Source: Bacteroidota bacterium (lineage in GTDB: Bacteria > Bacteroidota > Bacteroidia > UBA4408). From it: 64,000 nt of DNA. The notes below the pieces were generated by a model. It did not search any database, had not been told where the DNA came from, and saw nothing but the letters and a program-made list of their open reading frames with translations. Positions 22,001 to 42,984 of this stretch are shown here, one piece after another. Each line of letters opens with the position of its first letter. The stretch's first letter is position 1. The stretch is from contig JADKHO010000002.1 of the NCBI GenBank assembly GCA_016721765.1, positions 927,141 through 991,140 of the forward strand, given 5' to 3'. The position numbers were made by a program, and so were the translations under genes.

Positions 22001-22118
22001 TATAACCACCGACATACAAAGAAGGTGTTAACTGCACATCAAATTCCTGAGCGCTTACTGCTGAACTAAATAAAAGCATTAAAAATGCAGTTCTAAAAAG
22101 AAAGGATAATTTTTTCAT
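19041..22118 (-). CDS. Large secreted SprB-repeat protein with tail-fibre-like C-terminal coiled-coil domain
   Basis: It has four SprB-type repeats (GGVAPYTYVWNDG, GGVPPYTYLWSNG, GGTNSYSFVWEHG, GTAPYTYTWNNG). The C-terminus (WADYVF...HLPDMP...coiled coil) resembles the Bacteroidota 'tail fiber domain-containing protein' C-terminal module. Confidence 0.5.
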   Translation of the reverse strand: MKKLSFLFRTAFLMLLFSSAVSAQEFDVQLTPSLYVGGYNISCHGANTGSINLFITGGVAPYTYVWNDGITTRNRSNLIAGDYSVTVTASNGASVVRAIGLVEPEPFNAALIPTEKNGGYHISENGGSDGEVKVEVSGGVPPYTYLWSNGSTSSDNITDVSAGTYSITVHDATNCTAFGSVTLIEPTVLHIVSITSPKVVGNYNIGCGIAGSINLQVSGGTNSYSFVWEHGPSTQNVTDVLEEGVYGVLVMDANGAEDRAYISMTRSPEISATATPFVYSNNKNTSCNTCNNGSINLSITSGTAPYTYTWNNGSHVQNPNNLAAGVYSVAIVDAAGCTTEKTAFIIAPEREDWSMSGNTGIDPTTQYIGTADNKDLVFKRFNSETMRFTSSGTKFSKLISAEAGIALNPSKTLKIISDSIAGEKTVYFGRVNANAPTCISPNLGGTNTKFLFEGFMTSLPSNPIGSTNSALIMGSAPWDGSGLIDVQGTDNNGGTNNGLLINYFCGRDVSICTNTDPGYNSGVVRVGKHFEIGGPYVPSGSPEVTANINSVANTGLKVLTTTPNGGLYPQKNTQLSVYDIRTKIISGTSFNGSWDQELFSIKGDGETRIGSDVTTTEPSLFIKPFFDGSILTTSYVGIGTDDPQEQLDVQGEVRISGLANGPNAYNLVQSDANGKLSYVSTNTLNGIGLWETNGVNVYRPSGRVGIGTSIPSTYLDVIAPMGEEGLRVETSSDPAYTAQLISSSTVTKLIGGFLKANNLNNEVFSINANGKTLFGDPNQPSIFIKPFLDNANNYSFGNVGIGNNAPNAQFQVGQGVGSISMGGFWSYGNEWITNYLGFNAARQKAANSEAGTWTFKDNSGNGASVIMGSLAGDLRFATIPGDNSGEVTTTDASVLQNVKMIITATGKVGIGKDIKIGGFSADYDLYVTHGIRTERVKVDIGATAGWADYVFDKNYKRMPLNELEAFIAKNKHLPDMPTECEAQENGVDLLEMQVKLLKSVEELTLHMIELKKENDLLKIEIEKLR

Positions 22119-24080: not shown

Positions 24081-24572
24081 ATGGCAAGAAAAACATTCTT
24101 TAGCTTCCATTATGAAAATGATGTATGGAGAGCAAATCAAGTTAGAAATAGTTGGGTAACCAAGGACAATAACGAAGCGGCTGGCTTTATTGATTTTGCA
24201 GATTTTGAGAAAGTAGAGAAAGAAGGAGAGACTGCAATAAAGCAATGGATAGATAAACAGCTTGAAGGAACTTCTGTAACTGTTGTATTGATTGGTTCAG
24301 ACACCAACAATCGTCCGTATGTAAAATATGAGTTAGAAAAAAGCTGGGAAAAGGGCAATGGCATTTTGGGTATTTATATTCATCAACAAAAGAATAAAGA
24401 CGGGAAAATTGATAAAAAGGGAAGTAATTCATTTGGCCCTCTCTTTAAAAAGAGTTCTGATGACAAGCAATATTTTTGGGAACGATTTGAAACTTATGAC
24501 TGGGTTGATGATGACGGTTATAATAACATGGGAAAATGGATTGAATTAGCAGCAAAAAAAGCAGGTAGATAA
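24081..24572 (+). CDS. ThsB-like TIR domain protein (DUF1863/MTH538 TIR-like)
   Basis: The N-terminal motif FFSFHYENDVWRANQVRNSW and the overall ~160-200 aa layout match Thoeris ThsB-type TIR proteins. It is the first of three tandem paralogs. Confidence 0.65.
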   Translation: MARKTFFSFHYENDVWRANQVRNSWVTKDNNEAAGFIDFADFEKVEKEGETAIKQWIDKQLEGTSVTVVLIGSDTNNRPYVKYELEKSWEKGNGILGIYIHQQKNKDGKIDKKGSNSFGPLFKKSSDDKQYFWERFETYDWVDDDGYNNMGKWIELAAKKAGR

Positions 24573-25195
24573 TGGCAAGATATGTTTTTTTTAGTTTCGC
24601 TTATGACGATGTAAAGAACTTCAAAGTAAACGTTGTTCGGCACAGTTGGCTAATCAATAAAAATGAAGAAACTTTTATTGATGGTTCAATTTGGGAAAAG
24701 GATAAAACCAAAGGTTCAATAGCAATAATGAAGCTTATTGAGAATGGTTTAAACAAAACATCGGTAACGGCAATTCTAATTGGAGAAGAAACGGCAAATA
24801 GGCGTTGGGTTAATTATGAACTAATAAAAAGTTTTGACCGAGGAAACGGAATTTTAGGAGTTTATATTAATAGAATCAGAGGCAAACAACAAGCAATTTC
24901 AGCAAGAGGCCTTAATCCACTTGACCGTCTTGCATTTCAAATTTCAGAGGATGGAAGGAAAATTCGGTTTTATGAATTGATAAATCGCAAATGGGTCGTT
25001 TACTCTGACTTACCTGAAATAAATAATAAGAAGTCAAATACACTTTACTTTGAAGATAGCTTTTGGAAGGGTAATGATTTTGGAAAATCATTTCGCTTTT
25101 CTGAAATGTTCAATACTTTTTGTTGGATAAATGATGATGGACACAAAAACTTTTCATCTTGGGTTGAAGAAGCGGCAAATGAAGCAGGACGATAA
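24572..25195 (+). CDS. ThsB-like TIR domain protein (DUF1863)
   Basis: It has FFSFAYDDVKNFKVNVVRHSW...SVTAILIGEETANRRWVNYE...WVEEAANEAG. This is the closest in the window to the canonical ThsB pattern. Its start overlaps the previous gene's stop. Confidence 0.7.
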   Translation: MARYVFFSFAYDDVKNFKVNVVRHSWLINKNEETFIDGSIWEKDKTKGSIAIMKLIENGLNKTSVTAILIGEETANRRWVNYELIKSFDRGNGILGVYINRIRGKQQAISARGLNPLDRLAFQISEDGRKIRFYELINRKWVVYSDLPEINNKKSNTLYFEDSFWKGNDFGKSFRFSEMFNTFCWINDDGHKNFSSWVEEAANEAGR

Positions 25196-25212
25196 ACATA
25201 AAATATATTTTC

Positions 25213-25590
25213 ATGAGTAAATCAATTTTTATTAGTTGCGTTTTTGAAGACAGTCATAGAATTGAGTCAATAAAAAAATGGGCTATGAACAACCGACTTG
25301 GGGATGTAATAATTACCCATGAAACGGAAGATAAACGCCCACTTGGTAAAGATGCAATCAAGAAACATATTCAAAGCAAAATTGAAGGCGCTGCCATAAT
25401 ATTAGTATTGATTGGACAAGACACACATAATCATGAATGGATTGAAGCAGAAGTTGAGCTTGCAAACAGTTTTCATAAAGAAATTATTTGCGTTAGAGTT
25501 CCTCAAACCAAAGGTGCAGCTCCAATTTTGCTGGCAAATAAACGTTTAATTAGTTTTGACCCTGACGCTATTAAAAAGCTAATTTCATAG
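25213..25590 (+). CDS. Short TIR-like (DUF1863-like) protein
   Basis: It has an IFISCVFEDS start with an AIILVLIGQDTHNHEWIEAEVELA core. It is 125 aa. Confidence 0.5.
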   Translation: MSKSIFISCVFEDSHRIESIKKWAMNNRLGDVIITHETEDKRPLGKDAIKKHIQSKIEGAAIILVLIGQDTHNHEWIEAEVELANSFHKEIICVRVPQTKGAAPILLANKRLISFDPDAIKKLIS

Positions 25591-25852: not shown

Positions 25853-27415
25853 ATGGCAAAACAAAAAAAAGAAGTAAAAGAAAAAAGCATTGAAGTTACC
25901 CTTTGGGAAGCAGCTAATAAATTGAGAGGTAGCGTAGAGCCTGCCGAATACAAACACGTAGTATTAGGCCTGATTTTCTTAAAGTTTGCCAGTGACAAGT
26001 TTGAAGAACATCGAGCCAAATTGATTGCAGAAGGCAAAGACAAATACCTTGAACTGGCTGACTTCTACAATATGAGCAACGTATTCTTTTTGGAAGAAAC
26101 AAGCCGGTGGAGTCTCCTTATAAAAAAGTCAAAACAAAACGACATTGCATTGCTCATTGACACAGCATTGCATACTATTGAAAAAAACAACAAAGCACTG
26201 AAAGGTGCATTGCCCGACAATTACTTTTCTCGTTTGGGTTTGGATGTAACCAAACTAGCTTCTTTGCTTGATACCATTAACGACATTGACACCATCAAAG
26301 ACCCGAAGCAAGATGTTGTTGGGAAAGTGTATGAATACTTTCTTTCAAAATTTGCATTGGCAGAAGGAAAAGGCAAAGGAGAATTTTACACCCCCAAAAG
26401 CATTGTAAACCTGATTGCCGAAATGATTGAACCTTACAAGGGAATTATCTATGACCCAGCTTGTGGTTCGGGTGGAATGTTTGTGCAGAGTATTAAGTTT
26501 ATTGAAGCACACCACGGCAACAAAAAAGAAATTAGCATTTACGGACAGGAATACACCAACACGACTTACAAACTGGCGAAAATGAATTTGGCCATTAGAG
26601 GCATTAGTGGCAATCTTGGTGAAAAAGCTGCCGACACTTTTGCAGACGATCAACACAAAGACCTTAAAGCAGATTACATAATGGCTAATCCACCTTTTAA
26701 CCAAAAAGATTGGCGTGCCGAGAACGAATTGAAAGACGACCCACGTTGGAGAGGCTATGATGTGCCTCCCAAAAGCAACGCCAATTATGGTTGGATATTA
26801 AATATGGTTTCTAAACTTTCCGACAATGGTATTGCAGGTTTTATATTGGCAAACGGTGCATTGAGTGGCGGTGGCGAAGAATATAAAATACGCAGAAAAC
26901 TGATTGAAAATAAATTGGTGGAAGCCATTTTGGTATTGCCACGTAATTTGTTTTATACCACCGACATCAGCGTTACGCTTTGGATTGTGAACAAAAACAA
27001 AAAAGCACAAAATAAAAAAGTGGGAGTCGAAACCCGCAACAACCGTGACCGTGAAAAGGAAATCTTATTTATGGATTTGCGACAAATGGGCGAACCATTT
27101 GAAAAGAAATACACACAGTTTTCTGAGACTGATATTCAAAAAGTAACAAGTACATACCACCAATGGCAAACTAAAAATATTGAAAACGTTCCTGAATTCT
27201 GCTATTCGGCAACGTTTGATGAAGTAGCCAAAAAAGATTTTTCACTCGTTCCGAGCAAATACATTGAGTTTGTAAACCGTGACGAGAATATTGACTTTGA
27301 CAAAAAAATGCAAATCCTGCAAAACGAATTTGCAGGATTACTAAAAGCAGAAGCTAATTCAAAAAATGATTTACTAACCGTGTTTAAAGAATTGGGTTAT
27401 GAAATCACATTATAA
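25853..27415 (+). CDS. hsdM: Type I restriction-modification system DNA methyltransferase subunit
   Basis: It has an N6-adenine MTase catalytic motif NPPF (IMANPPFNQ) and an AdoMet motif (DPACGSGGMF). It is 520 aa and has HsdM N- and C-domains. Confidence 0.9.
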   Translation: MAKQKKEVKEKSIEVTLWEAANKLRGSVEPAEYKHVVLGLIFLKFASDKFEEHRAKLIAEGKDKYLELADFYNMSNVFFLEETSRWSLLIKKSKQNDIALLIDTALHTIEKNNKALKGALPDNYFSRLGLDVTKLASLLDTINDIDTIKDPKQDVVGKVYEYFLSKFALAEGKGKGEFYTPKSIVNLIAEMIEPYKGIIYDPACGSGGMFVQSIKFIEAHHGNKKEISIYGQEYTNTTYKLAKMNLAIRGISGNLGEKAADTFADDQHKDLKADYIMANPPFNQKDWRAENELKDDPRWRGYDVPPKSNANYGWILNMVSKLSDNGIAGFILANGALSGGGEEYKIRRKLIENKLVEAILVLPRNLFYTTDISVTLWIVNKNKKAQNKKVGVETRNNRDREKEILFMDLRQMGEPFEKKYTQFSETDIQKVTSTYHQWQTKNIENVPEFCYSATFDEVAKKDFSLVPSKYIEFVNRDENIDFDKKMQILQNEFAGLLKAEANSKNDLLTVFKELGYEITL

Positions 27416-28565
27416 ACCATTGGGTAAATACATACAACTTGTTGTAGGTCGCAACAATGAGTTGGGAGATTTACCATTAATGGGCTTGAGTATTTCAAAA
27501 AAATTTATTCCTTCTATTGCGAATACAATAGGAACTGATATGTCAACATACAGAACCATTTATAAAAATCAGTTCGCTTATGGTCCTGTAACATCAAGAA
27601 ACGGAGATAAATTTACAATTGCTTTGTTTAATGATTATGACAAAGCGTTGATTTCACAAGCATATATTCCTTTTGAAGTAAAAGACAGCAACGAACTTGA
27701 ACCCGAATATTTGATGATGTGGTTTCGCAGACCTGAGTTTGACCGTTACGCAAGATTTAAAAGTCACGGCAGTGCAAGAGAAATTTTTGATTGGGAAGAA
27801 ATGTGTAATACACTTCTGCCAGTTCCCCACCCCGACAAACAACGAGAAATAGTAAAAGAATACAACACCATACAAAACCGCATAGCACTCAACCAGCAAC
27901 TGATACAAAAACTCGAAGAAACCGCACAAGCTATTTATAGGCAGTGGTTTGTGGAAGGTATTGATTTACAGAATTTGCCAGAGGGGTGGACAATTGGTGA
28001 TTTAAGTATGATTTCCAAAAAAATATTTAGCGGTGGTACTCCGTCAACTGAAGTTGATGAATATTGGAATGGTGATTATTACTGGTTTTCTTCTGGTGAG
28101 ACTGGCTATAAATATATTCTTAGTACAGAAAAAAAAATCACTAAGGAAGGTATAAAGAACTCTACCACAAAAAAAACACAAAGATTAAGTACTGTAATTG
28201 CAACTGCGGGTCAGGGTAAAACTAGAGGTCAATCTGCTCTAATTTTTAATGATGTTTATATTAACCAATCTGTTATCTCTGTAGAACCAATAAGTACTGA
28301 ATATTCATATTTCATTTTCCTGAACATTAATTCAAGATACGAGGAATTAAGAAATGATTCTGATGCTCAAAGTATCAGAGGTAGCATCAATTCAAATGAC
28401 ATTAAAGGGTTGTCAACGATAGTGCCACTAAATGACATTATGCTAAAGTTTCACAAGACCGTTTCTCCTTTTTTTGAAATAATTGAGAATAAAATGAAAC
28501 AAAACCAAATGCTAAAGGAACTGAAAGATTTGCTTCTTTCGAAATTAGCGACAATAGAAAATTAA
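27399..28565 (+). CDS. hsdS: Type I restriction-modification specificity subunit
   Basis: It has two target-recognition domains separated by a conserved central helical repeat. It overlaps hsdM by 17 nt. Confidence 0.8.
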   Translation: MKSHYKPLGKYIQLVVGRNNELGDLPLMGLSISKKFIPSIANTIGTDMSTYRTIYKNQFAYGPVTSRNGDKFTIALFNDYDKALISQAYIPFEVKDSNELEPEYLMMWFRRPEFDRYARFKSHGSAREIFDWEEMCNTLLPVPHPDKQREIVKEYNTIQNRIALNQQLIQKLEETAQAIYRQWFVEGIDLQNLPEGWTIGDLSMISKKIFSGGTPSTEVDEYWNGDYYWFSSGETGYKYILSTEKKITKEGIKNSTTKKTQRLSTVIATAGQGKTRGQSALIFNDVYINQSVISVEPISTEYSYFIFLNINSRYEELRNDSDAQSIRGSINSNDIKGLSTIVPLNDIMLKFHKTVSPFFEIIENKMKQNQMLKELKDLLLSKLATIEN

Positions 28566-28572
28566 AAAAAAT

Positions 28573-29754
28573 ATGAGATATAAATATCAGCTAATAATAT
28601 TAGGCAGTAAAGTTTCAATAATTGATGATGTGATAGAATTGTTTTCTAAAAAATTAGAAGATTTGAAATTGCCAGATAGTTCTGTTAAAATTATTAATTC
28701 AGGTAATTTTGAAGCTGAATACCTAGGTAATCAGCCGGCATTTGTATTTTATTTTGGTGATGTGGTTGGAAATTTTAAGGATTTGGATATTACTCAGAGG
28801 TTATTGAATGAAGGCACTATGATATTGCCTATTTATTTTAATAATGATTCCTTCTCAAAGGAAATACCATGCATTTTAGAAAACCAAAATGGTATTCAGT
28901 ACAAAAAAATTGAAGAAGACAGAATAGTAAATATTGCATTAGAATCTTTTGAACTATTAAACAATACAAGAAAAATATTTATTAGTTATAAAAGAAATGA
29001 ATCAACATCAGTTGCCATTCAATTATTTGAAGCTTTAGAAGCGCATAATTTTGATGTTTTTTTAGATACTCATTCAATAGGTAAAGCTGAAGCGTTTCAA
29101 GAAGAATTATGGCACAAAATGACGGATTGTGATGTAATTCTACTACTGAATACACCAAATTTTCTGAATAGTCATTGGTGTAAAGAAGAATTTGCAGAAG
29201 CTGGTGCTAAACAAATTGGTATTGTTCAATTGGTTTGGCCAAATCATAATGTAAAAATGGATGATACATCTCATATCAGTTTTCCAAAGCAATTAATTAA
29301 AGAAAATTTCATTGCCGATTTATTTGATGACAGGGATAAATCAAAATTAAAAGATGATATAGTTGAAGAGATAATCAAAGAGGTTGAATCAGTTAGAGCG
29401 AGGAATTTAGCCGCACGGCAAGATAATTTAATTACAGAATTTAGAAATATTGCTGATAGAATTGGAAAAAAAATCACTTTACAACCAGAAAGATTTTTGA
29501 CAGAAGATTTGTCAAACGGTGAAAGAAGAATATATATACCAACGATTGGTATACCACAGTCAACAAGTTGTCAATCTGCTGAAATAAGAAATGAATTATT
29601 AAACTATGGTAATATCAGCATTAGGTTAATTTATGATGATATACGGATAAGAGAAAAATGGATTAATCATCTAGATTGGTTAAATAAAAATTTAAATGTA
29701 GATATCAAGACATTAAAAAAACAAGAATTTGAATCATGGCTAAGCAAGAATTAA
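28573..29754 (+). CDS. TIR domain-containing protein (N-terminal unknown domain + canonical TIR + C-terminal extension)
   Basis: The central RKIFISYKRNESTSVAIQLFEALEAHNFDVFLD...DVILLLNTPNFLNSHWCKEE is a canonical TIR signature. It starts 8 nt after hsdS. Confidence 0.6.
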   Translation: MRYKYQLIILGSKVSIIDDVIELFSKKLEDLKLPDSSVKIINSGNFEAEYLGNQPAFVFYFGDVVGNFKDLDITQRLLNEGTMILPIYFNNDSFSKEIPCILENQNGIQYKKIEEDRIVNIALESFELLNNTRKIFISYKRNESTSVAIQLFEALEAHNFDVFLDTHSIGKAEAFQEELWHKMTDCDVILLLNTPNFLNSHWCKEEFAEAGAKQIGIVQLVWPNHNVKMDDTSHISFPKQLIKENFIADLFDDRDKSKLKDDIVEEIIKEVESVRARNLAARQDNLITEFRNIADRIGKKITLQPERFLTEDLSNGERRIYIPTIGIPQSTSCQSAEIRNELLNYGNISIRLIYDDIRIREKWINHLDWLNKNLNVDIKTLKKQEFESWLSKN

Positions 29755-30332
29755 AAAATATTTTTCTATCTGCAAGTATTCCTTTGCCGGACAGAGATCC
29801 AAAATATATAGAGACTGCTGATATTATTGCTATCCGAGATGCTGTTATAGCTCTAACAACAGTTGTGCTACCATATCATAGAATTATTTGGGGTGGTCAT
29901 CCATCAATTACTCCTTTAATTTATTATGTAATGGATAAATTGAAATTAAATGTACAAAATCATGTTACTCTTTATCAATCAGAGTTCTTTAAAGAAAAGT
30001 TTCATGAAGACAATAATAAATTTGAAAATGTAATACTTACTGAAAACCTAGGTGACATTCCTTCAAGTGTTAAAAGAATGCGTGAAATAATATTTTCTGA
30101 GAATAAATTTGTTGCTGCAGTTTTTATAGGTGGTATGGATGGAATTGAAGTTGAATTTAATATGTTTCGAGAATATCATCCGGATGCTATTTTATTGCCA
30201 ATTTCAAGTGCAGGAGCAGCTTCTAAAGTTGTTTATGAAAATCTTCTGCCTGCAGAATTTAAAAATGAAATGCTGGTTAAGAATTATGCTTATATGTCTT
30301 TATTTCAAAATTTGTTAATCGATAAAATTTAG
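29736..30332 (+). CDS. SLOG/LOG-like Rossmann-fold protein (candidate TIR-signal sensor)
   Basis: The protein is 198 aa with two Gly-rich loops (RIIWGGHPS and VFIGGMDGIE) like LOG/SLOG (ThsA C-terminal) domains. It overlaps the upstream TIR gene by 19 nt. Confidence 0.4.
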   Translation: MAKQELKNIFLSASIPLPDRDPKYIETADIIAIRDAVIALTTVVLPYHRIIWGGHPSITPLIYYVMDKLKLNVQNHVTLYQSEFFKEKFHEDNNKFENVILTENLGDIPSSVKRMREIIFSENKFVAAVFIGGMDGIEVEFNMFREYHPDAILLPISSAGAASKVVYENLLPAEFKNEMLVKNYAYMSLFQNLLIDKI

Positions 30333-30335
30333 TTT

Positions 30336-31031
30336 ATGGCAAGAAATGTTTTTGTTTCATACAAATATTCTGACTCAAAAGTTCAAGACTTAGAGCTTTT
30401 TGAGATAGTTAATTATTTTGGTTCTAATATGAGACGTAAAATCACTACTACTGCTCGGCACTATGTAGACAAAGTAGCTGAAAAGCTGGAAAAGGAAGAC
30501 CACATCTTTAAAGGAGAAGATGATAATGAAAGCATGGAGACACTTGCTGATTCAACCATTGGTTCAAAGTTAGGTGATAAGATATTTTACAGTAGCGTAA
30601 CAATAGTGTTAATCTCTAAAGGAATGAAAGAACCTTTCAAGGCAGATAAAGACCAATGGATTCCTTGGGAAATATCTTATTCATTAAAACAACAAGATAG
30701 GCAAGATCAAAAAAGCAAAACCAATGGAGTTATAGCAGTTGTGTTACCTGATGAACTAGGCAGTTATGACTACTATATTACAAGAGATGAAGAATGTAAT
30801 TGCCGGTCATTAAATACGCCTATTCTCTTTGAAATACTAAGAGAAAATATGTTCAATGTAAAAGTCCCTAACAGACGACTTTGCAATGGTAGCTATGTTT
30901 ACACAGGTGATGCTTCATATATCCCGTCAATTAAATGGGAGGATTTTATTATTAAACCTTCAACATACATTGATAAGGCAATAGAACTAAGAGACAGAAA
31001 GGAAGATTTTGAATTAAGAAAAAATTTGTAA
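30336..31031 (+). CDS. TIR-like (DUF1863-like N-terminus) protein with unknown C-terminal domain
   Basis: The N-terminus MARNVFVSYKYSDSK parallels the ThsB-like genes upstream. It is 231 aa and starts 4 nt after the SLOG-like gene. Confidence 0.45.
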   Translation: MARNVFVSYKYSDSKVQDLELFEIVNYFGSNMRRKITTTARHYVDKVAEKLEKEDHIFKGEDDNESMETLADSTIGSKLGDKIFYSSVTIVLISKGMKEPFKADKDQWIPWEISYSLKQQDRQDQKSKTNGVIAVVLPDELGSYDYYITRDEECNCRSLNTPILFEILRENMFNVKVPNRRLCNGSYVYTGDASYIPSIKWEDFIIKPSTYIDKAIELRDRKEDFELRKNL

Positions 31032-31041
31032 CAAAAATAAT

Positions 31042-32754
31042 ATGGCGGAATTACATGTAAGTAGAAAAACGATCAGCAAATTACTAAGTGAAATGCAAGG
31101 AAGAAGGTTTATTATTCCAGATTTTCAACGCCCTTATAGATGGGACATAGAAAAATGTGAAACTCTTTGGAACGATATTATTAATTTTTTTGAAAATGAT
31201 CCAGAAGACACGGAATATTTTTTAGGAACCATTGTTACTGCTGAAAATGAAGAAAAAAATCCAGAAGTAATTGATGGACAGCAACGACTTACTTCGCTTT
31301 TTTTAATGTTAAGAGCTTTTTACAAGAAGTTGGAATCAATGAAAGATGATGATGATGTATTAGGTCTTAAAATGCAAGTAGGTCCATGTCTTTGGGATGT
31401 ACATTCAATATCTAAAAAAGTAAGTGATTTCAGTAAAATACATATATATTCTGATGTTGCAACCGATAGCGATAATCAGGTATTTCATAACATACTAGTT
31501 AAAGGTGAAGTAGAGAAGGCTCATGAAGATAATTATTCAATTAATTATCAATTTTTCAAAAGCTCTTGTGATGAATACGCAAAATCTAAACCGACAAAAT
31601 GGTATAGCTTATGTGTGGCAATACTAAATAGATGCATTATATTACCAATTGAATGTGATAAGCAGGAAACTGCCCTTACAATTTTTTCAACATTAAATGA
31701 TAGAGGGCTTCCTTTGGCAGACTCTGATATTTTTAAAGCTCAAATTTATAAGAACTATAAGTCTTCGGCTGAAAGAAAGGAATTTACTGAGCAATGGAAG
31801 CAGCTTACTGAAGTTTGCACTGAAGCTAATATTTCAATAGATGATGTCTTTAGGTATTATACTCATATTTTAAGAGCTAAAGCGAATGATAAAACAAAAG
31901 AGGTGGGCTTAAGAAAGTTTTATGCTCAAGATTTCTATTCCAGATTAAAAGAGGAGAACTGTCTTTCAGAAATTATTAAACTCTCTAATTTTTGGTGGTA
32001 TATTAATAATTATGAAAATCCTGCTGATTACCTTGAAGAAAATGAACCCTACCAAATCAGTACTTCAGCATTCAGATATATTCACGTTCTTATGAACTAC
32101 CCAAATGAATATTGGAAATATGTTACCAGTGTTTATTACTATACAAACAGAGTAAATGAAAATTTTAAAGATGATTTTGAGATATTCCTGAAACAACTTA
32201 TTGCATTTTTATTTGCAAAATTTATTGAACAGCCTACTGTAAACGCAATTAAAGATGATATTTATAGCGCTTGCATTTCAATTAGTTATGGAAACGGCTT
32301 AGGTCTTTACTACAATTTTTCTCAAGCCTATTTAGCTAATCGATATGAAACATTTTCTAGTTCTAAAATCAGCAAAGGCTTATTGCTACTTGACGCTTAT
32401 TTACATCCTGATCAAAAAGACTACATAAAAAAAGAAGTTGAAATTGAACATATATTTCCTAGGAAATGGCAATCTACAAATTACTTTGGATGGAAAGAAG
32501 AAGATGCAAGGGATTACTTAGACAAATTCGGAAATAAAATTGTTTTTGAGAAGAAACTAAATATTCAGGCCGGTAATGGTTATTTTAAGCGGAAGCAAGA
32601 TAAATATAGGTCTTCGGAAATTTCAGTTGTTAGAGATTTGGCAAACTATCAAAATAATGATTGGACAAAAGATGATATTGAAAAGCGTGAAGCAATTTTA
32701 AAAGATAGATTGATTGATTTTTTCAATAGTTTTATAAATGTTGGCTCTAAATAA
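31042..32754 (+). CDS. GmrSD-family type IV (modification-dependent) restriction enzyme, DUF262 + DUF1524
   Basis: The N-terminal DUF262/ParB-like motif is FIIPDFQRPYRWD...IDGQQRLTS. The C-terminal DUF1524 His-Me finger is EIEHIFPRKW. Confidence 0.8.
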   Translation: MAELHVSRKTISKLLSEMQGRRFIIPDFQRPYRWDIEKCETLWNDIINFFENDPEDTEYFLGTIVTAENEEKNPEVIDGQQRLTSLFLMLRAFYKKLESMKDDDDVLGLKMQVGPCLWDVHSISKKVSDFSKIHIYSDVATDSDNQVFHNILVKGEVEKAHEDNYSINYQFFKSSCDEYAKSKPTKWYSLCVAILNRCIILPIECDKQETALTIFSTLNDRGLPLADSDIFKAQIYKNYKSSAERKEFTEQWKQLTEVCTEANISIDDVFRYYTHILRAKANDKTKEVGLRKFYAQDFYSRLKEENCLSEIIKLSNFWWYINNYENPADYLEENEPYQISTSAFRYIHVLMNYPNEYWKYVTSVYYYTNRVNENFKDDFEIFLKQLIAFLFAKFIEQPTVNAIKDDIYSACISISYGNGLGLYYNFSQAYLANRYETFSSSKISKGLLLLDAYLHPDQKDYIKKEVEIEHIFPRKWQSTNYFGWKEEDARDYLDKFGNKIVFEKKLNIQAGNGYFKRKQDKYRSSEISVVRDLANYQNNDWTKDDIEKREAILKDRLIDFFNSFINVGSK

Positions 32755-35700
32755 ATGAAATTCACGGAAGAAAAATTAGAGAGAGCATTTATCGAATTGT
32801 TAGGGCAAGAAGGATTTCCCTACCGATTAGGCAATACTTTAACTCGTAAGTCTGAAGAAGTATTGATAGAAGAAGATTTACAAAACTTTCTTTTAACACA
32901 ATACGCTGGGCAAGGCATTACAGTCAATGAAATCAAATCTATTATTCTTCAACTCAAATCGCTTTCCGCTTCCGACCTTTATGAAAGCAACAAAACATTT
33001 TTAAAAATGCTTTCAGACGGTTTTATTCTCAAACGAGAAGACCGCAGCCAAAAAGATATTTACATTCAGCTTATCAATTACGCAGGACTAAACAAACACC
33101 GCCAACCTGATGCAGCCCAGTTAATTTCTATTGCTGCCGAACCCGAAGAAGTTTATCCACCAGACAATAACATTTACAAGTTTGTAAACCAATTAGAAAT
33201 TATTGGTTCAGAAAAACGTATTCCTGATGGTATTGTTTATATCAACGGTTTGCCTTTGGTGGTATTTGAATTCAAATCTGCCATTCGTGAAGAAGCCACT
33301 ATTTTCGATGCTTTCAAGCAATTAACGGTTCGTTACCGCAGAGATATTCCTGAACTGTTTAAATACAATGCTTTTTGTGTTATTAGCGATGGCGTAAATA
33401 ACAAGTCAGGTTCATTCTTTGCCCCGTATGAGTTTTTCTATGGCTGGCGCAGAGTGGCAGGTTTGGCAAAAGATGTGGACGGCATTGACAGTATGTTTAC
33501 ACTCATACAGGGAATGTTTCACAAAAACCGATTACGAGATATTATTCGCAACTTCATTTACATTCCTGATAGCTCAAAGAAAAATGAAAAAATTGTTTGT
33601 CGCTATCCGCAATACTATGCAGCAAGAGCATTATATGACAATATCAAAAAAGCCCAAAAGCCCGAAGGAAACGGAAAAGGTGGAACTTATTTTGGTGCCA
33701 CAGGATGCGGAAAAAGTTTTACTATGCTTTATCTCACAAGATTGTTGATGAAGAGCGAATACTTTGAAAGTCCGACTATTGTTTTAATAACTGACCGTAC
33801 CGATTTAGATGACCAACTTTCGGGACAATTTACCAATGCTAAAAATTTCATAGGCGACAATACTGTTGTAAGTGTGGAGAGCAGGGCCAATTTGAGAGAA
33901 TTAATTCAAGGCAGACAAAGCGGAGGCGTTTTCTTAACCACGATTCACAAGTTTACGGAGGACACACAACTTCTTACCGATAGACCAAACGTGATTTGTA
34001 TTTCTGACGAAGCTCACAGAAGCCAAGTAAACCTTGACCAAAAAGTAAAAGTTACCGAGAAAGGCGTTACCAAAACTTATGGCTTCGCCAAATACTTGCA
34101 CGATTCATTGCCCAATGCCACATTTGTTGGTTTCACAGGAACTCCCATAGATGCAACGTTGGATGTATTTGGGAAAGTGGTGGATGCTTACACAATGACC
34201 GAATCGGTGAAAGATGAAATCACTGTGCGGATTGTTTATGAAGGCAGAGCAGCAAAAGTGTTGTTGAACAATTCCAAACTCAAAGAGATTGAAGATTATT
34301 ACGCCAAGTGTGCTGAAATAGGCAGCAACGAAAATCAGATTGAACAGAGCAAAAAGGAAATGGCACACATGTATGCCATCATTGGCGACCCTGACCGTTT
34401 AAAAGCAGTTGCCGAAGACTTTGTAAACCATTATGAAAACAGAGTTTCGGAAGGTTCAACCGTGAAAGGCAAAGCAATGTTTGTGTGTAGCACTCGTGAA
34501 ATTGCTTATGAGTTGTATAAAAACATTATTGCCCTAAAACCCGAATGGAATGAAATACTTGCAGCAGAAGAAGGAGCAGAACTCACCGACAAAGACAAAC
34601 GAGAACTAAAACCCATTGAACGAATAAAGTTGATTGCCACCCAAGGAAAGGACGATGAAAAAGATATGTATGATTTGTTAGGCACAAAAGATTATCGCAA
34701 AGAACTTGACAGACAATTCAAAAATGAAAAATCGAATTTCAAAATCGCAATAGTAGTTGATATGTGGCTCACAGGTTTTGATGTGCCGTTCTTGGATAGC
34801 ATTTACATTGACAAACCTATTCAACGACATAATTTAATTCAAACTATTTCAAGAGTAAACCGCAAGTTTGAAGGAAAGAACAAAGGTTTGGTTGTGGATT
34901 ATATCGGCATCAAAACACAAATGAATCTGGCCTTGAAGCAATACAGCGAAGGCGACAAAGATAATTTTGAAGACATTGCTGAATCTATAATCATTGTAAG
35001 AAATCATTTAGACCTTTTGGCTAAACTGTTTCACACCTTTGACAATTCAAAATATTTTAAAGGCACTACTATTCAGCAATTAAATACGTTGAATTTGGCT
35101 GCTGAATATGTGCAACAAAGCAAAGACTTTGAAACCCGTTTTATGGGCTTGGTAAAGCGACTAAAAGCCGCTTATGATATTTGTGCAGGAAGCGAACAAT
35201 TAACTCAGTTAGAAAGAGATTACACACATTTTTATTTGGCAGTTCGTTCTATTGTTTTCAAACTCACCAAAGGTAATGCACCCGACACAGCACAGATGAA
35301 CGCTAAAGTTCGGGAAATGATAAAAGAAGCGTTGCAAAGTGAAGGTGTAGAAGAAATTTTCAAGCTCGGTGATGAAGCAGAAACCGAACAAGACATATTT
35401 GATGAAGATTATTTAGCGAAAATTGATAAAATCAAATTGCCGAATACTAAAATCAAATTGCTTCAACAGTTATTGGCTAAAGTGATTGCAGAAATTAAAA
35501 AAGTAAATCGTGTAAAAGGAATTGACTTTACTAAAAAGATGCAAGCTCTTGTTGAACGCTACAACAACCGTGATGTAAATGATATTTTGAGAAGTGAAGT
35601 GTATGAGGAAATGGCAAACGCTTTGACAGACTTGATTTGGGAAGTTCACAAAGAATTTGCAGCAGGAGACGCTTTAGGAATTGACTTTGAAGAAAAAGCA

Positions 35701-35967
35701 TTTTACGACATTCTTAAAGAACTGTGTGTAAAATACGACTTCAAGTATCCTGATGACAAAATGATTGACCTTGCAAAAGCTGTGAAAGACTTGGTTGATG
35801 GACAAGCCAAATTTCCTGATTGGAATAAACGTGATGATATTAAATCAGCTTTGAAAGTTGGTTTGATTTTATTATTGGATGAGTTTGGTTATCCACCGGT
35901 GGAAAGGGATGAAGTGTATGTAGAGATTTTTGAACAGGCGGAGAATTTTAAGAAAAATAAAATTTAA
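32755..35967 (+). CDS. hsdR: Type I restriction enzyme R subunit
   Basis: It has an N-terminal HsdR_N, an SF2 helicase motor (GTGKS-like Walker A in ATGCGKSF and DEAH-box ISDEAHRSQ) and a C-terminal helical domain. It is 1070 aa and its start abuts the gmrSD stop. Confidence 0.9.
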   Translation: MKFTEEKLERAFIELLGQEGFPYRLGNTLTRKSEEVLIEEDLQNFLLTQYAGQGITVNEIKSIILQLKSLSASDLYESNKTFLKMLSDGFILKREDRSQKDIYIQLINYAGLNKHRQPDAAQLISIAAEPEEVYPPDNNIYKFVNQLEIIGSEKRIPDGIVYINGLPLVVFEFKSAIREEATIFDAFKQLTVRYRRDIPELFKYNAFCVISDGVNNKSGSFFAPYEFFYGWRRVAGLAKDVDGIDSMFTLIQGMFHKNRLRDIIRNFIYIPDSSKKNEKIVCRYPQYYAARALYDNIKKAQKPEGNGKGGTYFGATGCGKSFTMLYLTRLLMKSEYFESPTIVLITDRTDLDDQLSGQFTNAKNFIGDNTVVSVESRANLRELIQGRQSGGVFLTTIHKFTEDTQLLTDRPNVICISDEAHRSQVNLDQKVKVTEKGVTKTYGFAKYLHDSLPNATFVGFTGTPIDATLDVFGKVVDAYTMTESVKDEITVRIVYEGRAAKVLLNNSKLKEIEDYYAKCAEIGSNENQIEQSKKEMAHMYAIIGDPDRLKAVAEDFVNHYENRVSEGSTVKGKAMFVCSTREIAYELYKNIIALKPEWNEILAAEEGAELTDKDKRELKPIERIKLIATQGKDDEKDMYDLLGTKDYRKELDRQFKNEKSNFKIAIVVDMWLTGFDVPFLDSIYIDKPIQRHNLIQTISRVNRKFEGKNKGLVVDYIGIKTQMNLALKQYSEGDKDNFEDIAESIIIVRNHLDLLAKLFHTFDNSKYFKGTTIQQLNTLNLAAEYVQQSKDFETRFMGLVKRLKAAYDICAGSEQLTQLERDYTHFYLAVRSIVFKLTKGNAPDTAQMNAKVREMIKEALQSEGVEEIFKLGDEAETEQDIFDEDYLAKIDKIKLPNTKIKLLQQLLAKVIAEIKKVNRVKGIDFTKKMQALVERYNNRDVNDILRSEVYEEMANALTDLIWEVHKEFAAGDALGIDFEEKAFYDILKELCVKYDFKYPDDKMIDLAKAVKDLVDGQAKFPDWNKRDDIKSALKVGLILLLDEFGYPPVERDEVYVEIFEQAENFKKNKI

Positions 35968-36331: not shown

Positions 36332-37588
36332 ATGGAAGAAAAAACTGAGCCCAAGAACGGATTTAGGATTTTAAGCGCCACAATGGCTATTGCTATTGCA
36401 TTTATTGCATTGGTAGCATTTCTTTTTATTACTTTTTTTTTCTTCCATAGCGAAATAATCCCATACAAATTTTTCGAACAAGCAACAGGTAATTATGCTC
36501 AATTAATTGCCGGAGTAATTGGAACATTGCTCTCATTTGCAGGCATCATTTTAATATACGCAACCTTTAAAGAACAGCAAGACTCAAATAAGGCGCAAGA
36601 TGATAAACAAAATCGGCAAACTAAACTTTTTAATCAACAGCAATTTGAAACAACTTTTTTTAATTTAATAGAAAACCATTTTAGAATAATTAAAAGTTTT
36701 GATGAAGAATTTTTTGATTTAAATAGAAATAGTTCCAAAGACAAGAGTGGCTATAATCAGCTAAATGATTGCTTCAGAAGGTTCAGAATAAAATTCTACA
36801 AAGTCGCAGATTATCAAATTTCTTCGCAATATTCAAATTACCAAACAATCAACTTTTATCCACTAGCTGATGAAAATATTGATAAAGCAATTATTATAAA
36901 ATCTGCTTCAAACATTCAGTTGATACTTGACTATATTTTGAGCTCAAAACAAATCGATAAAGATGCAAAAGAGCTTTATGCTAGAATATTATTTACTTCT
37001 TTAAATGAGAGTGAGGTATATTTTTACATTGCAAGAAGTTTTTGGGAAACCGGAAAATCAAATTTTTTCTTTAAAAACTTTAACGACTATTTCTTAGAGC
37101 AAGAAATGATGCGGAGTGTAAAGTTTAGCCTGAACCAATCACTTGGTTTTTACACATCCGAAAGAAATGGTCCTTCAAGGGAATTTGTCCTCACTGCTAA
37201 CGATGTTAAGTCAGATTTAAAACTTATCGAAATGGGGGAAAATCAAGAAATAAATTCTATTGAACATTCAATCTACGGAGAAAATGTTTCATTCGAATTT
37301 GAAGAAATAGTTTTACTTTTCCCTGAGCGCAAAAAACTTAAAATAGATTTTGATAAGTGTAATGGAGGAGGAATGTTTTATATAAAGTTACCTATTGCAT
37401 CAATTGCAAATGAACTTTATCCTAATCGCTTTGTACCTAACAGTGTTGAAGAAAAAAAAACATTTTTTGATGAGCATCAATTAGCTATAAGTTATTCTAT
37501 AAAAACAGGCACTGAATCCACAAAAATATGGTATAAAGTAAAAATGCAATATGAAGCTTTGAATCAAATAAGGATGGAAATTGAATAA
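36332..37588 (+). CDS. Hypothetical membrane protein (2 N-terminal TM helices + ~330 aa cytoplasmic domain); candidate defence/Abi effector
   Basis: Hydrophobic segments are at aa ~18-40 and 57-79. It is AT-rich and lies inside the defence island. Confidence 0.4.
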   Translation: MEEKTEPKNGFRILSATMAIAIAFIALVAFLFITFFFFHSEIIPYKFFEQATGNYAQLIAGVIGTLLSFAGIILIYATFKEQQDSNKAQDDKQNRQTKLFNQQQFETTFFNLIENHFRIIKSFDEEFFDLNRNSSKDKSGYNQLNDCFRRFRIKFYKVADYQISSQYSNYQTINFYPLADENIDKAIIIKSASNIQLILDYILSSKQIDKDAKELYARILFTSLNESEVYFYIARSFWETGKSNFFFKNFNDYFLEQEMMRSVKFSLNQSLGFYTSERNGPSREFVLTANDVKSDLKLIEMGENQEINSIEHSIYGENVSFEFEEIVLLFPERKKLKIDFDKCNGGGMFYIKLPIASIANELYPNRFVPNSVEEKKTFFDEHQLAISYSIKTGTESTKIWYKVKMQYEALNQIRMEIE

Positions 37589-37731
37589 GAGTTACTTCTT
37601 GTTTTGCTCAAGCGGTAATTACATCGCAGTTAGACCAAGATTTTTGAGCTCCTGAGTCCTATAATTTCTTAAATAAATGTGAATAACTCGTTATAAATAG
37701 ACGTTTCGAATTCATTAATTTTGCCTTCATA

Positions 37732-38727
37732 ATGACTATAAATCAAACCATTATGAAGAGAACAAACGAAATTATTAAATCATTTGATTACTCAGTAAAT
37801 CAAACTGAAGAATTGCTGTCAAGTTTAAGTGGAGAGCTCAGGATGTTGCCTCTAATTACAACCACTATTGCAAAAGGACAAAAAATATTTAGATGCCGTC
37901 CGATTCGCAAAGTTTCAGATATTCCACATTCTGAAAGCGAAATTTCTTATAGACCTGATGAAAAAGAAATTAAAACAATAGGCAGATGCAACTGGTTGGA
38001 GTCTTCAAAATTCTATGGTTCCATTAAAAGTGGAAATGAAGATGAAAACAATAAGGAGAAAAAGTATATACCTGGGGACGTGACAGCAATTGCAGAAATC
38101 AGTGATCTTGCACGAAATGATAAAGACGGTTCCGAAGTTTATGCAGTTGGAGTCTGGGAGGCTATAGAAGATTTTAAATTGTCTGTCTTGAAACCACCAT
38201 CTACAATTTCTTCCGAAAGTTTAATTGTTACAGAAATTCGTAATGCTTATAATGAGACATTTAAGAATGATAATCTTTCAGATGATCTCATAGAATTTCT
38301 TGAATTATATGGAAAACACATGGTACAAAAAGTAGGACCTGATGAAAATGAAAAGTATATGATATCATCATTAATCTCAGAGACACTTTTAGACTTTATT
38401 CCAGGGATGATATATACCTCGGTACAGTCGGATCACAAGGGCTTAAATGTTGTTATGAATCCACATGATTTTGTTAAATATTTTGCATTAAATCATGTAG
38501 TTATTGGTGAGTATTTCAAATTTAAAAACCATGCAACTTTTGGAGCAGTGTCGGTTTGTGAAGACACAAACGTCATTCCGTTTCAATATAAATTACCATC
38601 TGAAAAGGATCGCTTGATTTATTCTGAAATTATCGCGCTTTTTATCAGAGAAGGTATCTCTCGCGATTATATGGCAGATGTATTGACTAAACAATTGGCA
38701 AGTCAATCTCAAAAGGTTAAAGTATGA
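37732..38727 (+). CDS. RES-like (Arg-Glu-Ser NAD+-glycohydrolase toxin fold) domain protein - tentative
   Basis: GRCNW...KFYGS, AIAEIS and GMIYTSVQSDHKGLNVVMNP resemble the RES domain R / E / S blocks. Confidence 0.35.
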   Translation: MTINQTIMKRTNEIIKSFDYSVNQTEELLSSLSGELRMLPLITTTIAKGQKIFRCRPIRKVSDIPHSESEISYRPDEKEIKTIGRCNWLESSKFYGSIKSGNEDENNKEKKYIPGDVTAIAEISDLARNDKDGSEVYAVGVWEAIEDFKLSVLKPPSTISSESLIVTEIRNAYNETFKNDNLSDDLIEFLELYGKHMVQKVGPDENEKYMISSLISETLLDFIPGMIYTSVQSDHKGLNVVMNPHDFVKYFALNHVVIGEYFKFKNHATFGAVSVCEDTNVIPFQYKLPSEKDRLIYSEIIALFIREGISRDYMADVLTKQLASQSQKVKV

Positions 38728-39194
38728 ATTTCAGCATAGAATCTATTGTTGGAATATTAGCATTGTTAATAGCAGCTGCAGCTTTTATTCTTCAAATAAG
38801 AGATTCAAGTAAGAAAAAACCACCTGCACGTTTTAAAGGAGGCATTGGTAAGGGCAGCGTAGATATAGATATTAATACAGGAAATTTTGTGAGTTTTATT
38901 TTTAATAAAGAAGCAGGAGAGATTATTTATTTAGATATTTTTTTTGAAAATGATCAGAATTATGGGATAGATGAAAATAATAGATTCCATTTTTCTTTTT
39001 ATGAAAAACCAGAGCCGCAATGGGGTGGTTACAGTTTTTACATAGAAGTAAACGAAAATGATGATTTTTTTTTCGACAACAGACCATCTTCAAGAAGGTT
39101 GGCTGGACATTTTAAAATTATTGGAACAATTGGACCGCAACAAGGTTGGGTTACAGCATTTTTGAAGCCTGTAAAAAGTGAATTTATTAACTAA
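38724..39194 (+). CDS. Small protein with N-terminal TM helix, overlapping partner of the RES-like gene
   Basis: It has a 4-nt start/stop overlap with the upstream gene. There is a hydrophobic N-terminus (IVGILALLIAAAAFIL). Confidence 0.35.
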   Translation: MNFSIESIVGILALLIAAAAFILQIRDSSKKKPPARFKGGIGKGSVDIDINTGNFVSFIFNKEAGEIIYLDIFFENDQNYGIDENNRFHFSFYEKPEPQWGGYSFYIEVNENDDFFFDNRPSSRRLAGHFKIIGTIGPQQGWVTAFLKPVKSEFIN

Positions 39195-39217
39195 TTGTCT
39201 TCTATTAAACCTATAGT

Positions 39218-40006
39218 ATGCTTAGACTTGACGAAATAAAACTCCCAGATGGAAGTGGAGAACAAATGCATTTCCATTCTCCTGATGTGGAATACGTTGA
39301 CCCCATTGAGCATGTTGCCAATGCAATATTTGAATTGAGTGCATCTCTTACTACAAAACTTCTTTTGAACTCTGGGTTACCGTATTCACCTGAAATACTC
39401 AAAGGTGAGGCATTAAAGTTCGCATCGAGATCATTAAAAAAGGAAATGGATTTGTTTTTTGCGGCAACAATACCTGAAAATCTTCTTTCGATATTAACTG
39501 CAACCAAAAAGAACAATCAAGTCAAATTACTCAAAGGATTATCTATTACCCAGGAACAACTTTACGCATTTATTTTTAGAGCGAAAACTGAATTTGACTT
39601 TTTATTCAGCACTTATACTGCTGAACACCTACCCAATGGACTTGACCCAAATGAACTACCGGTATTTATAGAGGTAAAAGGTAACGAGGTTAATAAAATT
39701 GGGCAAACTAATCTTTCTGATGGACAACTAAAACAAGTGATGGCACATAGAAATTTTGTCTCTGCAATGTTTATAGATAAGGGCAGCACATGGCACTGTT
39801 TCTTTTTTACATTTAACAGTGTAAGAGGAAAAGAGGCATGGAAGGATGGCCAAGCCCACTATCATTATATTTCTGATAAATTTGGAATTCCCAGAGCAAA
39901 GGTTGTTGAGGAAATAAAGAGCGGAAGATATCACTTGGGAAACCTTCCTCATATTAATCTAAATGATGATCGTTACGACAAAAATAAAGGGAAAGGAACT
40001 TACTAA
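39218..40006 (+). CDS. Hypothetical protein (262 aa), no recognisable domain
   Basis: It is an intact ORF inside the defence cluster with an RBS-like spacing to the upstream gene. Confidence 0.35.
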   Translation: MLRLDEIKLPDGSGEQMHFHSPDVEYVDPIEHVANAIFELSASLTTKLLLNSGLPYSPEILKGEALKFASRSLKKEMDLFFAATIPENLLSILTATKKNNQVKLLKGLSITQEQLYAFIFRAKTEFDFLFSTYTAEHLPNGLDPNELPVFIEVKGNEVNKIGQTNLSDGQLKQVMAHRNFVSAMFIDKGSTWHCFFFTFNSVRGKEAWKDGQAHYHYISDKFGIPRAKVVEEIKSGRYHLGNLPHINLNDDRYDKNKGKGTY

Positions 40007-40463
40007 CAAATACGTAAAAATAATGCTAAAACAGGTTGTAACCGCTATAAGTAAAAGCAATAGAGATTCCTTAATAAAGGGAGTTGAGTATGCAATGTTA
40101 TTAGAAATTGAAACAAACGGGAGAATAGTTATTGAATTATATCCGCTGGTTGTGCCCGGTAAGGTGATTGTATAGATAAGCCTACATGACTTTTTATTTT
40201 AGTGGAAGGAAGTTACGGGCTAATTCTATTCAAAAAAGAAAAAAGCGGATGTAGAAGACTTTTCTGTGTTTCATGAAGAGACTGCAACCGAAAAGGAAGA
40301 TATATCAAATGAAGATATTTCACCATCAATAACGTTTTCGAGTAAAATGAACATTGACGATGATTCTGCGCCATTTTAACCATTACTAATTTAAGGCAAG
40401 TGGTGATCAAAATCCAGTTTTTTTAAATTGGTAGATTTAAGAATTGAATTAATCTTAGGTAAG

Positions 40464-42907: not shown

Positions 42908-42984
42908 AAAAATTTACTAAATATGTTCGTATTTTTTTTATATTATAATAACAGTAATTAGACTGAGTAAAAGTCAAGAAATTA

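Follow-up and report, generated by a model that had tools for sequence, protein, structure and literature searches.

Type III Thoeris genes at the hsdS/hsdR junction of a Bacteroidota type I restriction-modification operon and a possible two-chain TIR-SLOG effector

Introduction

Do the genes for two TIR proteins, a SLOG protein and a GmrSD restriction enzyme that lie between hsdS and hsdR of a type I restriction-modification (R-M) operon include a new defence system, and if not, which system is it and which of its proteins acts as the effector? This question is raised by a stretch of 64,000 nucleotides (nt) from a Bacteroidota bacterium (UBA4408; assembly GCA_016721765.1, JADKHO010000002.1:927,141-991,140, forward strand), which is called here the window and whose first nucleotide is position 1. 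A sequence-only reading of the window had taken the TIR and SLOG genes for a candidate undescribed Thoeris-like system, in which the TIR protein of 393 amino acids (aa) would make a signal, the SLOG protein of 198 aa would receive it, and an effector would act in trans. The analysis presented here identifies the two proteins as ThcB4 and ThcA of type III Thoeris, and leads to the tentative proposal that they constitute the effector together.

Type III Thoeris was reportedly found in Pseudomonas by van den Berg and colleagues in 2024 (Cell Host Microbe 32:1427), with ThcA and ThcB1-4 as its components. In those parts of the citing literature that were accessible, the system is presented as several TIR proteins plus a SLOG domain-containing effector, and a phage inhibitor of it, TadIII-1, is described. 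Both type III Thoeris and the embedding of defence genes in R-M operons are known; what the window holds is a copy from a Bacteroidota metagenome-assembled genome (MAG) that is embedded with GmrSD and has a subset of its TIR genes displaced upstream of hsdM.

Identity and organization of the locus

Domains were assigned with Pfam, PADLOC v2 (2023) and the equivalog models of NCBIfam (release June 2026) with their cut-offs. The 393-aa protein (28573..29754; this gene and all others of the locus are on the + strand) scores 442.6 bits over residues 5-387 against NF058526, the NCBIfam equivalog "Thoeris type III anti-phage system protein ThcB4", whose cut-off is 220, and it also matches Pfam TIR_2 (6e-14) and TIR. 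The 198-aa protein (29736..30332), a stand-alone SLOG protein of the LD_cluster3 type (Pfam SLOG cluster3, PF18180, 6e-59), scores 250.7 bits against the NCBIfam equivalog "ThcA" of type III Thoeris, with a cut-off of 110. Given that both core proteins are above the equivalog cut-offs and that the literature defines type III Thoeris by such a set of proteins, the system is already catalogued. The locus may have looked new because PADLOC v2, which calls the 393-aa protein and a second TIR protein of 231 aa ThsB (1.6e-133 and 6e-78, respectively), has no model for the SLOG protein. An identical ThcA sequence is already on record from a Bacteroidetes MAG. The four small TIR proteins of the window have no NCBIfam match at E<=1, and the 231-aa one has none whatever.

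The 231-aa protein is ThsB-like (30336..31031; Pfam ThsB_TIR, formerly DUF1863, 6e-6; PADLOC model PDLC00428; conserved W111-E112). It is followed by gmrSD (31042..32754), which encodes a type IV modification-dependent restriction enzyme of 570 aa (Pfam GmrSD_N 1.7e-38 and GmrSD_C 4.9e-16; PADLOC HEC-06 1.5e-54) with the motifs VIDGQQR, containing the DGQQR of the GmrS/DUF262 N-domain, and EIEHIFP, containing the EIEH of the GmrD/DUF1524 His-Me C-domain. The three type I R-M subunits around these genes are all found and matched over their full length by Pfam and PADLOC, namely the methyltransferase HsdM (25853..27415; Pfam N6_Mtase 1e-104 and HsdM_N; PADLOC MTase_I 1e-146), the specificity subunit HsdS (27399..28565; Pfam Methylase_S in two stretches; PADLOC Specificity_I 2e-51), and the restriction/translocase subunit HsdR (32755..35967; Pfam HSDR_N, SWI2_SNF2, T1R_D3-like and T1RH-like_C; PADLOC REase_I, 1261 bits).

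Intergenic distances, computed from the coordinates of the open reading frames (ORFs), show that hsdM and hsdS overlap by 17 nt, that a gap of 7 nt separates hsdS from the ThcB4 gene, and that the ThcB4 and ThcA genes overlap by 19 nt. These are followed by gaps of 3 nt between the ThcA and 231-aa TIR genes, 10 nt between the latter and gmrSD, and 0 nt between gmrSD and hsdR. Judged by this spacing, the genes from hsdM to hsdR are probably packed as one transcript. A scan for sigma-70 promoters and terminators was not above shuffled sequences (71 versus 66.7 and 13 versus 8.2, respectively), the sigma-70 model being ill-suited to Bacteroidota promoters. Gene order and domain content leave little doubt that the locus should be read as a type I R-M operon whose hsdS/hsdR junction holds two independent modules, type III Thoeris (ThcB4, ThcA and the 231-aa TIR) and GmrSD.

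Much of the sequence-only reading holds at this level: all ORFs lie where it placed them and on the + strand, its packing with overlaps or gaps of at most 10 nt is reproduced, co-transcription is probable, and its calls of TIR, SLOG, ThsB_TIR/DUF1863, GmrSD and HsdM/S/R domains are confirmed by Pfam. The two equivalogs bear out a Thoeris-type TIR and SLOG system and, by passing the cut-offs for type III Thoeris, match the locus to a catalogued system, so that the claim of an undescribed one falls.

When all ORFs of the window were scanned with hidden Markov models (HMMs), the TIR genes numbered exactly five; there is a single SLOG gene. A tblastn search of the window found no homologue of the SIR2-SLOG protein ThsA, and Pfam gave no SIR2 domain in the operon and no match to the Macro domain of type II Thoeris ThsA in any operon or flanking protein; the flanking genes have no matching PADLOC entry.

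Conservation of the core pair and of the accessory TIR genes

About 2300 ThcA homologues are detectable. In the 120 closest, which are 69-88% identical, ThcA always stands alone as a protein of about 198 aa. The genomic context was studied in 80 genome loci of the closest ThcA relatives, nearly all from Bacteroidota, onto each of which the window proteins were mapped. ThcB4 is encoded directly upstream of ThcA wherever the locus spans both, and both were detected in 78 of the 80 loci. In 54 of 75 loci the two genes share exactly 19 nt, as in the window; in the remainder they overlap by no more than 22 nt or are separated by no more than 11 nt. It is clear from the recurrence of the pair and of its overlap that the TIR-SLOG arrangement is not due to chance. 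When all ORFs of the 80 loci were clustered, only TIR, SLOG and hsd families exceeded 13 loci, and no other conserved partner or effector gene was found.

Co-inheritance was measured as the correlation (r) of pairwise-identity matrices between protein families. ThcA and ThcB4 give r = 0.58, close to the r = 0.62 of HsdM and HsdR, and ThcB4 and HsdR give r = 0.47. For either ThcA or ThcB4 with the 231-aa TIR, r is about 0.1. The core, ThcB4-ThcA, is invariant, co-inherited and translationally coupled; the small ThsB-family TIR genes differ between loci in number and type and shuffle independently of it.

Where present, extra TIR genes number 1 to 6 per locus, with a mode of 2. By HMM, at least one is present in 75 of 76 untruncated loci. 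Five loci lack an extra TIR gene: four of them are truncated contigs, and the remaining one, the exception among the untruncated loci, has a SEFIR/TIR-like neighbour. The 231-aa ThsB-like TIR, found after ThcA in 54/80 loci, is the commonest accessory TIR of the system. The types of 163 and 207 aa occur in 42/80, and a canonical TIR_2-type TIR of 193 aa, which is absent from the window, in 49/80. The conserved Glu is retained in all small TIR families.

Three further ThsB-like TIR genes, which the sequence-only reading had overlooked, lie upstream of hsdM in the window (24081-25590). They encode proteins of 163 aa (24081..24572; Pfam ThsB_TIR 1.2e-27; PADLOC ThsB PDLC00431 1.6e-68 over the full length; conserved Glu E84), 207 aa (24572..25195; Pfam ThsB_TIR 6e-18; PADLOC ThsB/PDC-M50B ~1e-50; conserved Glu E83) and 125 aa (25213..25590; Pfam ThsB_TIR 5e-13 and TIR_2 9e-7; PADLOC ThsB 1.7e-12). 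Orthologues of the 163-aa TIR with 67-72% identity directly adjoin ThcB4-ThcA in three related loci (L070, L077 and L079), and orthologues of the 207-aa TIR with the same range of identity sit downstream of ThcA in L031, L071 and L077. Because the two larger TIRs have orthologues beside ThcB4-ThcA elsewhere, the three genes are most probably part of this Thoeris system, and the 163-aa protein is a probable accessory sensor/producer TIR displaced upstream of hsdM. Set against this assignment, the three genes are cut off from ThcB4-ThcA by hsdM and hsdS and by a gap of 262 nt between the end of the 125-aa TIR gene (25590) and hsdM, and their membership rests on the positions of orthologues in other genomes and on there being no other partner in the window.

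In Proteobacteria, the core is found on plasmids that carry neither hsd genes nor GmrSD, as TIR-ThcB4-ThcA in Rhizobium and as several TIRs, ThcB4 and ThcA on an IncHI1B plasmid of E. coli. On the latter (NZ_CP034659.1, L166:2735-9409), two small TIRs are followed by a 538-aa gene annotated as "CBASS cGAMP-activated phospholipase", a 275-aa TIR, a ThcB4-like protein of 380 aa, a ThcA of 189 aa and a 190-aa TIR. No CD-NTase is annotated in the stretch shown, and the phospholipase gene could be part of a second, phospholipase-type Thoeris adjoining type III, or an extra effector.

A search with the ThcA profile against 1.84 billion representative proteins, clustered at 50% identity, found 1120 ThcA-family clusters, most of them stand-alone. 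Four divergent clusters are single polypeptides of 572, 600, 613 and 735 aa, with TIR_2 at the position of ThcB4 and the LD_cluster3 SLOG domain at the C-terminus. They hold 4, 4, 4 and 15 members, each from independent assemblies, indicating that the fusions are not one-off frameshift artefacts. In one locus (L168), the fused gene is still flanked by a separate TIR gene.

Two other members of the search results have different partners. P0247 (392 aa) is a ThcA-family SLOG domain fused to a receiver domain and a zinc ribbon. P0253 (2848 aa) is matched by the ThcA profile in 40 stretches, yet its Pfam matches are unrelated (Mpo1-like, microcin immunity), and its match to the profile is probably a repetitive or low-complexity artefact. 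A TIR gene also occurs within a cassette of the nucleotide-modification type: in 10-13 related genomes, ThcB4-ThcA is adjoined by a module of four genes for Nmad2 (PF18753), a ThsB-like TIR, the helical domain of a 5-hmdU DNA kinase (PF18723) and MazG_C (PF18722). The module, seen at L001:10886-13943 (minus strand) and in similar form in L004, L006 and about 10 more loci, is absent from the window.

The hsdS/hsdR junction as a slot for defence cargo

Nesting in an R-M operon of the same lineage, defined as hsdM and/or hsdS upstream and/or hsdR downstream at >50% identity, was observed in 36 of the 80 type III Thoeris loci, a fraction of 45% that may be inflated by the choice of closest relatives, the query being an R-M-nested ThcA. 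All three hsd genes were seen in 23. The other 44 loci have no same-lineage hsd genes, and a few of these have an unrelated or rearranged type I R-M system nearby. In two such loci (L028 and L044) type I R-M genes lie directly upstream of ThcB4, with HsdM and HsdR only 25-29% identical to those of the window, and in a third (L068) same-lineage hsdS and hsdR are both upstream of ThcB4. These three were counted as not nested, and the association with type I R-M is consequently somewhat broader than 36/80. On a tree of ThcB4 and ThcA with 76 tips, the nested state is scattered, with 17 parsimony changes compared with a mean of 25 and a minimum of 19 after shuffling. This points to many gains or losses of nesting.

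The Thoeris genes are the sole cargo in 7 of 26 nested loci, and in the other 19 a further 1.2-5.2 kilobases (kb) precede hsdR. GmrSD/DUF262 accompanies few of the 80 loci. Viewed from the R-M side, in 80 metagenome loci with hsdM at least 81% identical to that of the window, ThcB4-ThcA is present in only one of the 40 that were informative. In 20 loci both hsdS and hsdR are present; other cargo of 1-5.2 kb separates the two genes in 18 of these, and in the remaining two there is no cargo. The cargo in this sample includes Schlafen/AlbA_2-HATPase, GmrSD/DUF262, AbiEii and unknown genes. Two close relatives of the window illustrate the variety: one (L161:1242-12296) has the order hsdM-hsdS-Shedu(SduA_C)-ThcB4-ThcA-TIR-TIR-DUF6998-DUF6088-AbiEii-hsdR, and the other (L163:1307-11882) has hsdM-hsdS-DUF8370/8371-SIR2(SIR2_2)-HerA(DUF87)-ThcB4-ThcA-TIR-TIR. 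In the window, the content of guanine and cytosine (GC) is 0.287-0.320 in the cargo (28000-33000), compared with 0.396 in hsdM (26000-27000) and 0.385 in hsdR (33000-35000), which is consistent with the cargo having been acquired separately.

The many unrelated defence systems found at this position indicate that it is a general hotspot for defence cargo in this hsd lineage, with type III Thoeris as one interchangeable occupant among many. Genes embedded in R-M operons have precedents in the Rlo genes of C. jejuni, which lie between hsdS and hsdR and include RloF, a DUF262 protein, and in TgvAB of V. cholerae. The principle was termed "guilt-by-embedding" by Payne 2024 (bioRxiv 10.1101/2024.01.29.577857), with PrrC as an example that is nearly always embedded. 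The hotspot suggested in the sequence-only reading agrees with this preprint and with the varied cargo of the relatives. Thoeris or SLOG as embedded cargo has zero mentions in Payne 2024, and none was found in the related literature examined.

Candidate effector and rival explanations

ThcB4 consists of an N-terminal alpha/beta domain, a SARM1-like TIR domain (residues ~133-240), a long helix and a C-terminal alpha/beta domain. The top matches of its TIR domain are SARM1, plant TIRs and ThsB, with TIR-STING structures among the fold matches and with further matches to the N-glycosidases MilB and DNPH1. In a profile alignment to the SARM1 TIR, the invariant E205/E206 falls in the region that holds the catalytic Glu of SARM1. 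Outside the TIR domain, neither residues 1-130 nor residues 245-393 have a Pfam match at E<=10, and hhalign found nothing when these N- and C-terminal pieces were compared with TIR and SLOG profiles. ThcA has no domain beyond SLOG. Its top structural match is the SLOG domain of ThsA, and the R / G...E / TG positions of the ThsA SLOG ligand-binding domain align with it; a sequence search of the PDB with the ThcA profile gave no meaningful match. Across its closest relatives the mean column identity of ThcA is 80%.

A mechanism that would account for these features is one in which each of the small ThsB-like TIRs senses a phage cue and turns NAD+ into a signal derived from ADP-ribose, as in type I Thoeris. 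The signal would be bound by ThcA through its ThsA-like SLOG pocket, ThcA being the regulatory, ligand-binding subunit of ThcB4. The two proteins would make up a TIR-SLOG effector of two chains that corresponds to ThsA, in which SIR2 and SLOG are fused, and the output would most likely be the consumption of NAD+ by the SARM1-like TIR domain of ThcB4. Embedding in the R-M operon may provide for co-expression and co-transfer of layered defences, directed at unmodified DNA and at hypermodified DNA, with signalling as a back-up, and does not imply an obligate functional dependence. In systems of this kind, fusion of sensor and effector is usual and fusion of a producer to its receptor would be odd, so that the ThcB4-ThcA fusions favour a split effector. 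They also make a sensor-effector pairing likelier than the producer and receiver roles given to the 393-aa and 198-aa proteins in the sequence-only reading. The split effector, with small TIRs that sense and produce and ThcB4·ThcA as the two-chain effector, is preferred here but held tentatively, somewhat short of probable; as a whole, the account of the locus that combines its identity, its organization and the two-chain effector model is likely to be the best explanation.

Several points weigh against this reading. The original authors of type III Thoeris are said to have named ThcB4 as a protein of the ThsB type, that is, a producer. An effector that depletes NAD+ usually gives an abortive-infection (Abi) phenotype. 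A citing preprint describes type III Thoeris as lacking this phenotype and mentions a hypothesised "NucS nuclease effector domain", a remark that matches nothing here, no nuclease-like domain being found in any protein of the Thoeris locus. Moreover, in one lineage (P0365, 371 aa) the ThcA SLOG domain is fused to a small ThsB_TIR domain instead, and the evidence from fusions is not exclusive to ThcB4. Some of these observations would be better explained by the classical logic of Thoeris, in which ThcB4 is also a sensor and signal producer and ThcA alone is receptor and effector, either as a LOG-like N-glycosidase/phosphoribohydrolase that depletes or alters the nucleotide pool or through oligomerisation induced by the ligand. 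An effector that is not an NADase fits the lack of an Abi phenotype reported in the accessible literature, where the effector of type III is called "SLOG domain-containing" and the thcB naming is used. The very high conservation of ThcA is in line with such a role. So is its motif GGMDGIEVE, which resembles the LOG motif PGGxGTxxE. However, ThcA has no extra domain, the recurrent fusions would join a producer and the receptor of its own signal in a single chain, which is atypical, and the invariance of ThcB4 next to other TIRs that can be swapped is left unexplained. This makes the classical logic rather unlikely, although it is the main rival.

The position of the genes between hsdS and hsdR is also that of PrrC/EcoprrI and of the Rlo genes, and together with the 36 nested loci, the moderate correlation of ThcB4 with HsdR and the tight packing suggestive of one transcript, it could point to HsdR or GmrSD, encoded in the same operon, as an effector in trans, or to a PrrC-like guard that fires when phage anti-restriction proteins disable type I R-M. 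Most relatives lack these genes, which renders both forms of this idea highly unlikely: same-lineage hsd genes are missing from 44 of the 80 loci, hsd and GmrSD are missing from the Proteobacterial plasmids, GmrSD/DUF262 is present in few loci, the slot holds many unrelated defence systems, and the reference system is reported, in the accessible literature, as TIR plus SLOG. HsdR, GmrSD and the downstream membrane genes were rejected as trans effectors, not being conserved with type III Thoeris. The joint claim that a split TIR-SLOG effector, with the small TIRs as sole sensors and producers, also serves as a PrrC-like guard of R-M, triggered by phage anti-restriction proteins that neutralise the R-M complex, is very unlikely. 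Finally, the TIR-like and SLOG proteins might not signal at all but act as nucleoside 2-deoxyribosyltransferase/LOG-type enzymes that modify or degrade nucleotides or DNA bases alongside the restriction enzymes. The matches of the ThcB4 TIR domain to MilB and DNPH1 would agree with this, as would the ThsB-like TIR within the Nmad2/5-hmdU DNA kinase/MazG_C module beside ThcB4-ThcA in 10-13 loci. Given that the top matches are signalling or NADase TIRs (SARM1, plant TIRs and ThsB) and the ThsA SLOG ligand-binding domain, and that the proteins are equivalogs of a reported anti-phage Thoeris type, such an enzymatic role is extremely improbable. Considered as a whole, the interpretation offered by the sequence-only reading keeps its Thoeris-like system and its hotspot and loses the novelty of the system and the effector in trans, be it HsdR, GmrSD or the "RES-like" and membrane genes downstream, none of which is conserved with the core.

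Genomic surroundings

The defence locus lies in a stretch of low GC content (11000-43625, ~0.29-0.35, with 0.37-0.43 in the flanks) that contains a tyrosine integrase gene (13235-14608, +) and ends at a tRNA-Asp gene (43551-43625, -), which suggests a genomic island containing the whole locus. No repeat of the 3' end of the tRNA was found elsewhere in the window that would mark it as the attachment site. Downstream of hsdR, six genes on the + strand (36332-43365) encode a membrane protein of 418 aa with weak MFS_2/MARVEL matches, proteins of 331, 156 and 262 aa without matches, a 471-aa protein with an N-terminal HNH_5 domain, and a 246-aa protein. None of the genes in this region (36-43 kb) has a PADLOC or NCBIfam match, and none is conserved beside type III Thoeris elsewhere in the 80 loci; they may be defence genes of this island that have yet to be characterised. 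On the other side, a 1025-aa protein with SprB repeats (19041-22118, -) and another that bears a Por secretion tail (16521-18512, -) are surface proteins of the gliding/type IX secretion system (T9SS) type, consistent with a Bacteroidota origin.

Significance and comparison with known systems

By itself, the identification corrects an annotation, the defence system being catalogued and its kind of genomic location documented. The comparative data bear on the signal and the mechanism of type III Thoeris, which are unsettled in the accessible part of the citing literature. ThcB4 and ThcA are invariant, co-inherited and sometimes fused, and no other effector travels with them, which leads to the concrete hypothesis that a two-chain TIR-SLOG NADase is the missing effector. 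If the effector is indeed split, the gene names of type III Thoeris would give a misleading picture of how the system is built, with a SARM1-like TIR in place of SIR2. The data also present one Bacteroidota type I R-M lineage as the scaffold of a small defence island, in which Shedu, SIR2-HerA, AbiE, GmrSD, Schlafen-like genes and type III Thoeris are swapped between hsdS and hsdR.

Like type III Thoeris, the locus combines a stand-alone LD_cluster3/DprA-type SLOG protein with several TIR proteins in one operon, and it has the ThcA and ThcB4 equivalogs. It differs from the reference system, whose architecture was compared indirectly, in its Bacteroidota host, in its nesting between hsdS and hsdR, and in its apparent split by hsdM and hsdS. 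With type I Thoeris it shares ThsB-family TIRs, often several per locus, and a SLOG domain that aligns with that of ThsA. In type I, however, ThsA is a SIR2-SLOG protein of the STALD type, whereas the window has no SIR2 and its SLOG is an LD_cluster3 domain in a separate 198-aa protein that is coupled or fused to a TIR. Type II Thoeris differs in having a ThsA with transmembrane helices and a Macro domain, a domain for which there is no match at the locus.

The joining of a nucleotide-sensor domain to a TIR is also known from TIR-SAVED, TIR-STING and the CARF-TIR protein Cat1, and the fused TIR-SLOG proteins share this architecture. Unlike in those proteins, the sensor here is a SLOG domain, usually on a separate polypeptide, and the NADase activity of ThcB4 is a prediction. 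As cargo of a type I R-M operon, the genes resemble PrrC/EcoprrI, the Rlo genes, of which RloF is a DUF262 protein, and TgvAB, and a GmrSD-family gene between hsdS and hsdR follows a documented pattern. Unlike that of PrrC, the embedding of type III Thoeris is not near-obligate, with 44 of the 80 loci outside a same-lineage hsd operon and the plasmid versions free of hsd genes.

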